Of a stretch of 38,838 bases of DNA, positions 196-8,665 are shown one piece after another; position 1 is the stretch's first letter; the number at the start of each line of letters is the position of its first letter. This DNA comes from a virus. Lineage: Duplodnaviria > Heunggongvirae > Uroviricota > Caudoviricetes. Made by a program: the position numbers and the translations under genes. The notes beneath the pieces are model-generated. The model was given only the letters and a program-made list of their open reading frames with translations, ran no database searches and had not been told where the DNA came from. The stretch covers positions 1-38,838 of the IMG/VR virus record IMGVR_UViG_2718217859_000004. One strand, written 5' to 3'.

Positions 196-1047
196 TCAAC
201 GAGTGAATTTAAGTAACTGCTCTACGGTCATATTTTTAATTGCGCCCGGATTTACAAGAGTCCATCCCTGTTTTTCCAGATAAAAGCGGAAGGTATCCAG
301 GGTGCAGACCATTGCGCCGTCAGGAACGGTTTCAGTGAATTCGACATTGCCGAATTTGTCGAAGTGAACAACCAGAGTGCGTCCATCACCCGGAATAATT
401 TTGTCAGCGGGTGGGGTATTATTCTGACGCAGCTCTGCCTCCATGCGGTCGAACTCAGCGATGTAGGCCTCTTTGAATGCGGCGGCTTTTTTGCCGGTGA
501 AGCCCATTACCAGGAAAACGAAGCCGTTTTTTGTGATCTGATATGCGTTATAGGTATTGCCACGGTGCTCAAATTTAACCCGCGAAAAGTTGCTGGTTAA
601 AAAGCGTTCAGAACATTCGAGGGATTCTATTTTTTGAACAACGTGGTGATGTTGCTTGCCAAAGAATTCTGCGATCGCAATAGACGTAGTGACAGCGCGA
701 CCGTTTTCGATGGTTACATCAGGGTGAGAAAGGGTAGGGATAGTAGCCATGATGGCAGCCTCGATAGTCAGTTTAAATAACTCACCACCAAGGTTTTCCA
801 CGACCATAAGGGTGGTGAGACGTACAGGGGTGGAAATACCGGCGACTACCGAAACCGGCCAGCCTTGCGGCTGCCCTGCACGCCCCACCATAATCTGAAT
901 GTGGCTGTGCATTACGCATAAAAAAACCGCCTGAGCGCGGTTATGCGCGGTAATCATCATCGGGTTTCCACGCCCGGCACCCGTTTTATGAGGTGCAGGT
1001 GCACTATAATTCCACCCGTTCTGGTTTTCAATAGCTACATTCAACAT
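196..1047 (-). CDS. Rha-family phage regulatory protein / antirepressor-like
   Basis: 283-aa ORF; residues ~115-200 (VTTSIAIAEFFGKQHHHVVQKIESLECSERFL...) resemble the Rha domain. 99 stop-free codons upstream of the domain argue for the long form; an alternative start is M100 at 748-750 (GAGG upstream). Confidence 0.6.
   Translation of the reverse strand: MLNVAIENQNGWNYSAPAPHKTGAGRGNPMMITAHNRAQAVFLCVMHSHIQIMVGRAGQPQGWPVSVVAGISTPVRLTTLMVVENLGGELFKLTIEAAIMATIPTLSHPDVTIENGRAVTTSIAIAEFFGKQHHHVVQKIESLECSERFLTSNFSRVKFEHRGNTYNAYQITKNGFVFLVMGFTGKKAAAFKEAYIAEFDRMEAELRQNNTPPADKIIPGDGRTLVVHFDKFGNVEFTETVPDGAMVCTLDTFRFYLEKQGWTLVNPGAIKNMTVEQLLKFTR
918..942 (-). terminator. Intrinsic-terminator-like hairpin inside the N-terminal part of the Rha-family ORF
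   Basis: Minus strand reads AACCGC-GCTCAG-GCGGTT followed by TTTTTTT (6-bp stem, 6-nt loop, U7). Confidence 0.35.
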
Positions 1048-2833: not shown

Positions 2834-3241
2834 TTATTTATTTGCGCTTCTTTTGCGAGCTTTGAGTAGTTCTTCAAAAAGTTTGTTGAAATTCTCAACT
2901 CGAGCACGCATCTCTGACAACAGAGCCTTTTGCTCTGACTCAGGCAGTGCGTCGAACAGTTGAAGCAACTCTTTTTGATCTTCTGTCAGATTGACTGGCT
3001 GATTATCTGGGATCGGTTCGCCTGGTTGCTTATCTTCATCTCCAAAAAGAAGCCAAGTCGGCGAGCACTGAAGCGCCTGGCTCAGTGCGAATAATCTCTT
3101 CCCCGCTGGCTGTGTTTCATCTCTTTCCCATTGAGAGATTGTTACGTGAGCCACTTTGACCAGCTTACCTAATGCGGCCTGAGACAGTTTTAATTTTTTA
3201 CGCCTATATAAGAGGCGAGCACCGAAGGTTTCGTTTTTCAT
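2834..3241 (-). CDS. dicA: HTH XRE-family prophage repressor, DicA-like (135 aa)
   Basis: N-terminal HTH (LKLSQAALGKLVKVAHVTISQWERDETQPAGKRLFALSQAL), C-terminal ...MRARVENFNKLFEELLKARKR; same length as DicA; divergent from a cro-like gene. Confidence 0.85.
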   Translation of the reverse strand: MKNETFGARLLYRRKKLKLSQAALGKLVKVAHVTISQWERDETQPAGKRLFALSQALQCSPTWLLFGDEDKQPGEPIPDNQPVNLTEDQKELLQLFDALPESEQKALLSEMRARVENFNKLFEELLKARKRSANK

Positions 3242-6334: not shown

Positions 6335-7001
6335 GCGGATGGTGCAGGCCTGAAATTATGATACTAACAATGAAGGTAAAATGCATCGGCAGTCTGATTG
6401 GTCGTAGTGAGGCGGCGGTCAGGATGAAAGCCCGGGTTAAGGGAATAAGCCTGATTCTGCGGGGTGATTTTCACCAGTCAACAAAATATCCGTAGCGCGA
6501 TAACGGTCAAAAATCATGGCGCTGACACTTTTGTGCCACTGGAGATGACTGTACCTAAGTTCAGGGGATAAGAACACGTCCGGTGGGATGGTCGGGCCAG
6601 ATTTAAAGGGCAGGTCATGGCTCCAGCCTGTACGCTGGCAATGGAGGCTGCCTGGCGGGAAATTGATATGGGAACCACGCCACTCAGGGATTTACTGCCG
6701 GCCCAGAGAATAAATTCCTGTTACGGTTACACCACTGTGATCTTGCAAGTGCAGGAAAGTAGGTCTACACGGTAACGCGAGTGCGTGTAACTTTTGATGT
6801 CATTTCCGTAGAAACACCGGACAAATTTTCGCTGACAGGTCATGCTGAAGGTATAAATCTGCAGATTATGGACAATTACGGATATCCGGCAAGAGCCGGA
6901 AAAAGCATGCCGTCTCTAATTCTCAGTGGAAGATGGACTTGATTATACTCATTGCATTGTCAGAAATAGTTATCCATTAAAGGCTGGCTATTCCAAACAG
7001 G

Positions 7002-7029
7002 ATGTTGATTACAAAAATGTAATCAACAT
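7002..7029. promoter_or_regulatory. Perfect 12-bp inverted repeat, candidate operator
   Basis: ATGTTGATTACA-aaaa-TGTAATCAACAT in an AT-rich tract ~165 bp upstream of the substrate-binding-protein gene. Confidence 0.4.
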
Positions 7030-7193
7030 GTAAGGTTTATATTCTTCAATATGTGTATAATTTTCCTTATTTTGTTAACTTTAAATAACAAGCTATGCAC
7101 GAGGTAAAGTCGGGTAAGTTTATCTGGATGTAATATATATTATTTATAGTGTTTATAACTTTATTTCATGATAACCAATAAAAGGAGCTTTTT

Positions 7194-7952
7194 ATGAGGA
7201 ACATAATGGCTGGTTTTTTAATATTCCTGTCTTCAGCTGCTTATGCTGATATCAATCTGTATGGTCCTGGTGGCCCGCATACAGCCTTGCTTGATGCAGC
7301 CAAACTTTATGCCGAAAAAACAGGTATTATAGTGAACGTTCATTACGGCCCACAGAACAAATGGAATGAAGATGCCAAAAAAAATGCAGATATCTTGTTT
7401 GGCGCATCAGAACAATCTGCTCTGGCTATCATTCGGGACCATAAAGACAGCTTCAGTGAAAAAGATATTCAGCCTCTTTATCTGCGAAAAAGTATTTTAC
7501 TGGTAAAGAAAGGTAATCCTAAAAATATCCGGAGTATTGACGACCTGACCAGACCCGGGATTGGCGTAATTGTTAATGATGGTGGTGGTACCAGTAATAC
7601 ATCAGGCACTGGAGTCTGGGAAGATATTGCCGGACGTAAAGGGAATATAGAAACTGTCGCCGCAATCCGAAAAAATATTATTTTATATGCACCCAATAGC
7701 GGAACTGCACGTAAGGCTCTTGAGAATCAGCCTGGAGCAGATGTCTGGATAACCTGGGCTGACTGGGCAGCCAGTAATCCAGAAATTGGTGATGTCGTGG
7801 AAATAGCGCCAGACTACGTGATATGGCGTGATATGAACATTACAGTACGTCAGGATGCAAATGATGAAACCCGTCGATTTGCAGAATGGCTACAAACCGA
7901 TGAAGCGGCGCCTGCATTCAAAAAATATGGCTGGACCAGGAAAGGCACTTGA
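7194..7952 (+). CDS. Secreted periplasmic substrate-binding protein (ModA/tungstate-binding-like fold), orphan cargo gene
   Basis: AAGGAG RBS; signal peptide MRNIMAGFLIFLSSAAYA; DINLYGPGGPHTALLDAAKLYAEKTG... similar in architecture to ModA-type binding proteins; no adjacent ABC permease/ATPase; low-GC flank. Confidence 0.7.
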   Translation: MRNIMAGFLIFLSSAAYADINLYGPGGPHTALLDAAKLYAEKTGIIVNVHYGPQNKWNEDAKKNADILFGASEQSALAIIRDHKDSFSEKDIQPLYLRKSILLVKKGNPKNIRSIDDLTRPGIGVIVNDGGGTSNTSGTGVWEDIAGRKGNIETVAAIRKNIILYAPNSGTARKALENQPGADVWITWADWAASNPEIGDVVEIAPDYVIWRDMNITVRQDANDETRRFAEWLQTDEAAPAFKKYGWTRKGT

Positions 7953-7958
7953 CATCCT

Positions 7959-7987
7959 CCACGTCCATCAGGACGTGGATTCTTTTT
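7959..7987 (+). terminator. Rho-independent terminator after the substrate-binding-protein gene
   Basis: CCACGTCC-atca-GGACGTGG followed by ATTCTTTTT. Confidence 0.7.
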
Positions 7988-8234
7988 CCGGATGCCGCGC
8001 CAGCGGCATGTAGGGGCAGCTCACAAAACGGAAAAAATTGTACGCTAAGCATCGCCTATGGGAATTCCCATATCGGGCGAAAACGGTTTGCTGTAACGGC
8101 AGAGTTAAGTAGAATTGCTGCGGGTGCTTGAGGCTATCTGCCTCGGGCATGAACACCAACGGCAGATAGAGAAAAGCCCCAGTTAACATTACGCGTCCTG
8201 CAAGACGCTTAACATTAATCTGAGGCCATATCTA

Positions 8235-8438
8235 TGCGACACATAGAGATTAGCCTCTTACGGACCGAAAGGTCAAGGAGAAGCAGGCTATGAAGCAGCA
8301 AAAGGCGATGCTAATCGCCCTGATCGTCATCTGTTTAACCGTCTTAGTGACGGCACTGGTAACGAGGAAAGACCTCTGCGAGGTACGAATCCGAACCGGC
8401 CAGACGGAGGTCGCTGTCTTCACAGCTTACGAACCTGA
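8235..8438 (+). CDS. mok-like overlapping reading frame (67 codons) of the hok locus
   Basis: ATG at 8235; ORF overlaps hok in another frame and ends 7 nt before the hok stop, as mok does in hok/sok loci. Confidence 0.4.
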
Positions 8439-8445
8439 GGAGTAA
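8290..8445 (+). CDS. hokD: Hok/Gef family membrane toxin (51 aa), HokD/RelF-like
   Basis: Translation MKQQKAMLIALIVICLTVLVTALVTRKDLCEVRIRTGQTEVAVFTAYEPEE; below the 60-aa ORF-track cutoff; one TM helix plus conserved Cys. Confidence 0.85.
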   Translation: MKQQKAMLIALIVICLTVLVTALVTRKDLCEVRIRTGQTEVAVFTAYEPEE

Positions 8446-8513
8446 GAGACCTGGCGGGGGAGAAATCCTTCGCCACCTCTGATGAGTCAGGCATCCTCAA
8501 TGCACCCACACTT

Positions 8514-8540
8514 AACCCGCTTCGGCGGGTTTTTGTTTTT
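8514..8540 (+). terminator. Rho-independent terminator at the 3' end of the hok transcript
   Basis: AACCCGC-ttcg-GCGGGTT followed by TTTTGTTTTT. Confidence 0.7.
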
Positions 8541-8665
8541 ATTTTCAACGTGTTTGAAGTTCTGGACGGTGCCGGAATAGAATCAAAAATACTTAAGTAG
8601 CGCGCAGGGAGAAGAGGGATGGACCCCGAACAGGGGAGTGCTATTTATCTGGAAGGATTCTGTTG

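Follow-up and report, generated by a model that had tools for sequence, protein, structure and literature searches.

Does the hok gene of this prophage stand alone as a toxin gene, or does it belong to a complete type I toxin-antitoxin locus? The question goes back to an earlier note on this DNA, which described a Hok-family toxin near-identical to HokD/RelF but without the relBE partner found in Qin, and which made the answer depend on whether a Sok-like antisense RNA is encoded in the leader. Our reading of the window (the whole stretch of 38,838 nucleotides that was analysed) is that positions 8087-8541 are very probably, in their design, a complete hok/sok-type type I toxin-antitoxin module, as judged from the sequence and from predicted folds. 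That the locus is also active in vivo is probable by analogy with systems that have been studied directly, and we hold this with somewhat less assurance. Both as a kind of locus and as a sequence type it is already known, and there is little new in it. The features discussed are as follows, in order of position in the window.

7958-7989, plus strand: intrinsic terminator of the upstream gene paa (hairpin 7958-7979), a 9-bp stem that is a perfect 9-nt inverted repeat, followed by TTCTTTTTCC; from the terminator scan
8087-8115, plus strand: putative weak hok promoter, read from the sequence, with -35 TTTGCT (8087-8092), a 17-nt spacer and -10 TAGAAT (8110-8115)
8122-8537, plus strand: predicted full-length hok mRNA of about 416 nt, from the conserved 5' end GGGUGCUUGAGG to the terminator; from the start of the Rfam match and from folding
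8122-8133, plus strand: tac element, predicted to pair with fbi in the full-length RNA or with ucb in the 3'-truncated RNA; from the folds of both RNAs, in the terminology of PMC9841398
8134-8142/8161-8169, plus strand: inverted repeat CTATCTGCC ... GGCAGATAG, the conserved 5' leader stem-loop; from the sequence and the Rfam model
8174-8180, plus strand: ucb, AAGCCCC, predicted from the folds to pair with the mok Shine-Dalgarno region (full-length) or with tac (truncated)
8172-8240, minus strand: predicted Sok antisense RNA of about 69 nt, starting at 8240; from the fold and homology to sokW
8222-8225, plus strand: mok Shine-Dalgarno sequence GAGG, 8 nt before the mok ATG; from the sequence, invariant in 75 loci
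8234-8293, plus strand: mok-like leader ORF of 19 codons, MRHIEISLLRTERSRRSRL; from translation
8247-8276, minus strand: predicted Sok promoter, from the minus-strand sequence, with -35 TTGACC (8276-8271), an 18-nt spacer and -10 TAATCT (8252-8247)
8253-8259, plus strand: GCCUCUU box, predicted from the folds to be the anti-Shine-Dalgarno sequence for hok (full-length) and to take the dcb role with the mok Shine-Dalgarno sequence (truncated)
8275-8280, plus strand: hok Shine-Dalgarno sequence AAGGAG, 9 nt before the hok ATG; from the sequence
8290-8445, plus strand: hok toxin gene, 51 aa, MKQQKAMLIALIVICLTVLVTALVTRKDLCEVRIRTGQTEVAVFTAYEPEE; from the ORF list and Pfam HOK_GEF
8495-8507, plus strand: fbi element CCUCAAUGCACCC, complementary to the 5' end of the mRNA; from the full-length fold, and also kept in K-12 hokD
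8514-8541, plus strand: intrinsic terminator of the hok mRNA (hairpin 8514-8531), stem-loop AACCCGCTTCGGCGGGTT and then a T run; from the terminator scan

The toxin gene and its mRNA

The product of the 51-aa ORF scores 84.1 bits against the Pfam profile HOK_GEF (cut-off 22), with profile positions 1-42 of 42 covered, and is identical to K-12 HokD at 50 of 51 residues (98%), the sole difference being L19 for I19. The near-identity to HokD/RelF that had been claimed is thus borne out, and HokD is also the RefSeq name both of the near-identical proteins and of the CDS. Identity is 90% to the HokW-type protein of Stx2 phage I, 82% to HokC and 45% to the Hok of R1-type plasmids, and all of the residues that are invariant across HokD, HokW, HokC and R1 Hok are kept. 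Two NCBIfam models give scores under their cut-offs, the Hok subfamily NF007279 (50.6 bits, cut-off 73) and the HokA equivalog NF007290 (42.1 bits, cut-off 89), and since these models describe other Hok subgroups the scores are uninformative for this protein. The Tyr47 codon of hok lies within a UACG motif (8428-8431), and Y47 is invariant in the five Hok proteins aligned; for hokC, hokD and hokE mRNAs A-to-I editing by TadA has been reported, changing tyrosine to cysteine at about the Y47 position (bioRxiv 10.1101/2025.08.07.668861).

With regard to the leader, the earlier note had proposed an alignment with known sok/hok leaders. The leader aligns base for base with those of R1-type plasmid hok, K-12 hokC, hokB and prophage hok genes, the conserved blocks being the 5' end GGGTGCTTGAGGC, the inverted-repeat stem, the nearly invariant motif AAAAGCCCC at ucb, GAGGC before the ATG, GCCTCTTAC, and CAAGGAGAAG before the hok ATG. 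In an Rfam scan of the whole window RF01794 ('sok') covers 8122-8292 with 101.3 bits (gathering score 59) over the full length of the model (positions 1-157 of 157). As the strand matched is the hok-sense one and the match stops at the hok AUG, it is proof of homology to hok/sok leaders and not of an antisense transcript, and we have rejected it as evidence for a Sok RNA. If annotation were automated on the basis of RF01794, both the strand and the extent given for 'sok' would be wrong.

The first helix of the Rfam model is the inverted repeat at 8134-8169, the position of which had been given exactly in the earlier note. The 9-nt repeat is nested in a longer imperfect repeat of 20 nt (8123-8142/8161-8180), and it is 98.7% paired over 75 homologous loci with compensatory changes, AU to GC in six sequences and CG to UA in two (helix 2 of our alignment); on this comparison of sequences it is no chance match. 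Another inverted repeat, of 15 nt and 87% complementary, is found between 8043-8057, 5' of the hok promoter, and 8303-8317 at the start of the hok ORF. This repeat, outside the predicted transcript, is probably a chance match.

The putative hok promoter was below threshold in a consensus sigma-70 scan and was not called, the -35 TTTGCT being a poor match to the consensus, and such a score fits a weak promoter. Its -10 TAGAAT ends 6 nt 5' of the predicted +1 at 8122, and -10-like hexamers (TAGAAT, TATAAT, TAGGAT, TATGAT) precede GGGTGC/GGCGC at the equivalent position in hokC, hokB and R1-type hok. At the other end, the 3' terminator that had been noted earlier is called by the terminator scan, both as to the hairpin and as to the T run that follows it.

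The predicted mRNA (8122-8537) has a minimum free energy of -173.2 kcal/mol (z = -7.5 against shuffles). In the full-length fold tac is predicted to pair with fbi, the mok Shine-Dalgarno sequence GAGG(C) with the CCCC box at 8175-8180, and the hok Shine-Dalgarno sequence AAGGAG with GCCUCUU. In a truncated form (8122-8494), from which the 3' 43 nt were removed in silico, a tac/ucb stem is predicted, with GGG.UGCU paired to AAGCCCC, while the mok Shine-Dalgarno sequence GAGGC pairs with GCCUC (8253-8257) and that of hok is unpaired. In R1 hok mRNA a rearrangement from tac/fbi to tac/ucb together with SD/dcb has been described (PMC9841398), and the refolding predicted here on removal of the 3' end matches that switch.

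The structure derived from the window was followed over 75 distinct homologous loci, where 95.8% of cells are paired; in the control with partners slid by 1-3 columns the figure is 35-43%. Double-sided changes are found at 16 pairs against a shuffled mean of 5.6, and none of 500 shuffles reaches 16. As the set consists of closely related sequences and the structure was taken from one of them, it is the slid control and the double changes that carry the argument. The tac/fbi helix (helix 1) is 99.6% paired in the 75 loci and is almost invariant, so that it contributes little covariation, and GCCTCTT is invariant in the same loci, its helix (helix 6) being 100% paired.

The antisense RNA and the mok frame

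At the level of sequence the answer to the question of a Sok-like antisense RNA is yes, with all of its expected parts between 8276 and 8172 on the minus strand. The order on that strand is TTGACC, 18 nt, TAATCT, CTATGT, GUCGCAUAGAUAU, a long hairpin (8227 to 8175) and UUUU, the 5' end of the predicted Sok being a single-stranded tail with complementarity to the start of mok. The -35 box overlaps, on the opposite strand, the hok Shine-Dalgarno sequence AAGGAG. The fold of 8166-8243 on the minus strand (78 nt) has an energy of -31.9 kcal/mol (z = -4.4), and the Sok hairpin, followed through its image on the sense strand (helix 4), is 99.4% paired, with double changes at three pairs in five sequences. 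The Sok promoter was not called in a generic sigma-70 scan, its -10 TAATCT matching the consensus at 3 of 6 positions, but we do not take this as absence, as with these thresholds the validated sokW promoter (TTGCCT-17-TAACCT) would be missed as well.

That promoter belongs to hokW-sokW of the Sakai prophage Sp5, in which HokW is toxic and sokW, expressed from its own promoter, protects; mutation of the sokW -10 abolishes the antitoxin protection, and both hokW and sokW RNAs are seen on northern blots (PMC8621323). The complementarity of the sokW RNA to the hokW leader extends over 71 nt, and the YO-421/422 mutagenesis alters sense TAGGTTA, which is the antisense sokW -10 TAACCT (PMC8621323). 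In our alignment TAATCT of the window occupies the column of this -10, and primer YO-351 of the same study (PMC8621323) is identical to window 8120-8169. A count of 71 nt back from the U tract, made as a reconstruction on the aligned sequence, brings the start of sokW to the G of GTTCAGCAT. The homologous G of the window is at 8240, and a Sok that begins there and runs to 8172 has a length of about 69 nt. In K-12, too, the annotated SokC begins inside mokC. The predicted Sok promoter, 5' tail, hairpin and U tract of the window are thus present and collinear with those of the validated sokW.

In the case of mok, the earlier note had spoken of a mok-like overlapping frame. There is indeed a leader ORF, and GAGG is also the mok Shine-Dalgarno sequence of R1 (PMC9841398), but the frame has only 19 codons and its overlap with hok is one of 4 nt (ATGA), the mok UGA at 8291-8293 overlapping the hok AUG at 8290-8292. 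We compared 95 copies, these being the hok loci with at least 90% Hok identity, window included, in a species-representative genome set, IMG/VR viral contigs and the annotated records examined. The distance between the mok and hok ATGs is 57 nt in 73 of the 95, which puts mok in the frame of hok, as in the annotation of K-12 mokC; it is 56 nt, as in the window, in 13, and 58 nt in four, which have the classic overlapping mok of 68 codons. All three mok frames relative to hok are therefore found among related loci. Against the commonest allele the window leader has a 2-nt deletion right after the mok ATG and a 1-nt insertion, changes by which mok is brought into another frame and the 5' tail of Sok becomes shorter, and which could in principle impair coupling or Sok recognition.

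It is this allele that gives the main rival explanation its force. The locus would then be a decaying and silent hok relic, in which the 2-nt deletion uncouples mok or spoils recognition by Sok; the mok frame is off that of the majority allele (56 against 57 nt between the ATGs), K-12 hokD is itself truncated, the chromosomal hok loci of K-12 are reported to be silent, and hokA, hokB and hokC on the chromosome, when tested earlier, did not bring about post-segregational killing (cited in bioRxiv 10.1101/2025.08.07.668861). However, mutagenesis of R1 has found mok translation up to the hok Shine-Dalgarno sequence to be mandatory and translation beyond the hok start to be dispensable (PMC9841398), so that a 19-codon mok, which reads through the hok Shine-Dalgarno sequence and stops on the hok AUG, satisfies the known requirement. 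The 56-nt allele is also present, with differing flanks and an intact hok, in 16 of 120 related hok loci examined (the window counted), and its recurrence among differing neighbours speaks against a recent inactivating lesion, which would be unlikely to spread in this way. Moreover the hok ORF, both Shine-Dalgarno sequences, tac, ucb, fbi, the terminator, and the predicted Sok promoter and hairpin are all intact. We therefore consider it unlikely that the locus is a relic. A link between the short-mok allele and paa was also looked at and rejected, since paa precedes both frame classes and does so at a minority of loci only.

The leader is otherwise very conserved, but over the mok start and Sok 5' tail (8226-8247) it varies more than anywhere else, with about 20 alleles in 75 sequences, against 5-6 alleles in the neighbouring 20-nt leader segments. 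This variability may reflect specificity groups among co-resident hok/sok copies. A further step, which we offer as a conjecture that is possible and rather doubtful, is that selection acts on the specificity of the Sok target, so that the several copies in one genome would not cross-protect, and on the transit of ribosomes rather than on the Mok peptide, in which case the window allele would be one functional specificity type.

Neighbouring genes and the relation to relBE

The locus lies in the nin/Q-proximal part of a lambdoid prophage, where the genes follow one another as paa - hok/sok - rem-like - DUF968 - rusA - Q. The gene upstream of hok (7194-7952, plus strand) had been described as a substrate-binding-protein cargo gene standing where Qin has relBE. 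It does match Pfam SBP_bac_11, a family with the solute-binding-protein fold, and there is no relBE, but its identity is better given as the adhesin gene paa, with a terminator of its own: the homologue in E. coli C325 has the RefSeq name 'AcfC family adhesin Paa'. Paa is an AcfC-family adhesin associated with attaching-effacing E. coli, and its homologue here is cargo of the prophage. The paa terminator is predicted to be the upstream boundary of the hok locus and to insulate it. In E. coli C325 there is a frameshifted fimbrial gene just 5' of paa, and its counterpart in the window (about 6400-7150) contains only short broken ORFs. Near the left end of the window are adjoining Rfam matches to C4 antisense RNA (808-895, minus strand, 79 bits) and isrK Hfq-binding RNA (920-996, minus strand, 65 bits), both above the gathering score, and this stretch of the prophage resembles an immunity/anti-repressor region of the P1/P7 c4-ant type or of the isrK type. 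No tRNA genes were found in the window.

Neither relB nor relE was found in the window, whereas the K-12 relBE genes abut hokD, and the relBEF-type arrangement, with relB-relE directly upstream of a leaderless hok, is not that of the window locus. In an alignment with K-12 relE-hokD the similarity begins only about 16 nt before the hok ATG, and from there it continues through the ORF, the 3' UTR and the terminator into the downstream rem-like gene. As the homology begins only at that point, we take K-12 hokD to be a truncated copy and the window to carry the intact locus. Missing from K-12 hokD are the hok promoter, tac, ucb, mok, and the Sok gene with its target, relB-relE being in their place, and the absence of these leader elements was reportedly noted by Pedersen and Gerdes in 1999. 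What the two loci share, apart from the toxin itself, is the 3' UTR with fbi and terminator and, downstream, the rem-like gene, DUF968/ydfU and Q. The description of the window locus as one without its relBE partner has thus to be inverted: about 90 of the 95 copies carry the full leader, and of the five that are leaderless four are relBE-linked.

The hok of Kluyvera sp. CHPC 1.2972 (3001-3150), the product of which is only 70% identical to the window Hok, is also leaderless, and has upstream sequence of the K-12 type, corresponding to the stretch that follows relE in Qin. If relBE is present in this strain, then the relBE-hok fusion would be an older conserved alternative architecture and not an accident of K-12.

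That hok should be a lone toxin without an antitoxin RNA of its own, expressed only by read-through from upstream phage or cargo transcription like K-12 hokD, the third gene of relBEF, is very improbable, since for all its near-identity to a protein that has no Sok in K-12, and its position downstream of paa on the same strand, it follows a strong intrinsic terminator, has a 168-nt leader that is absent from K-12 and matches the Rfam model end to end, and is faced on the minus strand by a Sok promoter, hairpin and U tract.

The wider distribution of the locus was looked at with a 710-nt region. Matches to it were found in 79 phage records and, among 5426 complete E. coli genomes, in 4726, where the number of places per genome has a median of 2 and goes up to 11; according to a recent survey, about 80% of Enterobacteriaceae genomes have a Hok, and prophages are enriched for it (bioRxiv 10.1101/2025.08.07.668861). 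Over the whole region even the best matches, which are to E. coli prophages, reach an identity of only about 93-94%, so that the host may, on sequence, be a relative of E. coli. Assemblies of Acinetobacter idrijaensis (275-bp contig) and Xanthomonas pisi (431-bp contig) have a hok 93-98% identical to that of the window, and these contigs are most likely contamination from E. coli or phage.

Comparison with known systems and probable role

The hokW-sokW locus of Sp5 and the 933W-type Stx2 phages (PMC8621323) resembles the window locus in being that of a lambdoid prophage with a 51-aa Hok (90% identity), in its collinear leader, the first 50 nt of which are those of YO-351, and in the Sok hairpin and the position of the Sok -10. 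For hokW-sokW toxicity, antitoxin activity, dependence on RNase III and Hfq, and both RNAs have been shown experimentally (PMC8621323). The differences are in the Sok promoter (TTGACC-18-TAATCT in the window and TTGCCT-17-TAACCT in hokW-sokW), in the Sok 5' tail and mok start, which differ in sequence and are 2 nt shorter in the window (about 69 nt for Sok, against 71 nt for sokW), in mok, which has 19 codons and ends on the hok AUG in the window whereas the hokW type has an upstream ATG in frame with hok (57 nt), in the C-terminus of Hok (FTAYEPEE, against FVDYESEK in HokW), and in position in the phage genome.

The R1 hok/sok (parB) system has the same tac, fbi, ucb, dcb, mok Shine-Dalgarno sequence, mok, and Sok with 5' tail and terminator hairpin, and also the predicted refolding from full-length to truncated form. 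However, R1 Hok is only 45% identical and is carried by a plasmid and not a prophage, and R1 mok, with 70 codons against 19 in the window, extends in a different frame over nearly the whole of hok. The hairpin region common to leader and Sok has in the window some 16-19 extra nt relative to R1, seen as an insertion in the Rfam alignment. In the case of K-12 hokC/mokC/sokC (gef), the likeness is in Hok (82%), in the layout of the leader, and in a SokC start inside the mok start region. On the other hand mokC is in frame with hokC, starting 57 nt upstream and sharing its stop codon, whereas the window mok is in another frame; the K-12 hokC copy also has IS186 just downstream, and its Sok hairpin is shorter than that of the window.

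From R1 hok/sok and Sp5 hokW-sokW we infer by analogy the transcription of both RNAs, the 3' processing, the instability of Sok, the translational coupling and the toxicity, and on that footing the locus would work as follows. The weak promoter would give a stable hok mRNA of about 416 nt, which in its full-length form would be inert, with tac and fbi paired, the mok Shine-Dalgarno sequence held by ucb and that of hok by the GCCUCUU box. Slow trimming from the 3' end would remove fbi, and the 5' end would then pair with ucb and the translation-initiation region refold. As long as the prophage is present and quiescent, the opposite strand would give the unstable Sok of about 69 nt, which would pair with the mok start region, block translation of mok and mark the duplex for RNase III. 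If Sok falls, ribosomes translating the 19-codon mok would pass through the hok Shine-Dalgarno sequence and terminate at the UGA, which shares nucleotides with the start codon of hok, and Hok would be made. Hok would enter the inner membrane, and the cell would be killed or lysed.

With regard to the role of such a module in the phage, the closely related hokW-sokW works and speeds phage release after induction (PMC8621323). By analogy, the role here is most likely that Hok is made as Sok disappears after prophage induction, and so aids lysis and release of phage. Stabilisation of the prophage, or exclusion of other phages, are possible roles.

In the public records that we examined the hokD CDS is annotated, and Sok, mok and the mRNA are left out. 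For annotation the use of the present analysis lies in extending it to these parts of the locus. It also shows that relBE should not be taken for the usual partner of hokD, and the window locus may serve as a clean and intact reference against which the losses in K-12 hokD can be read.
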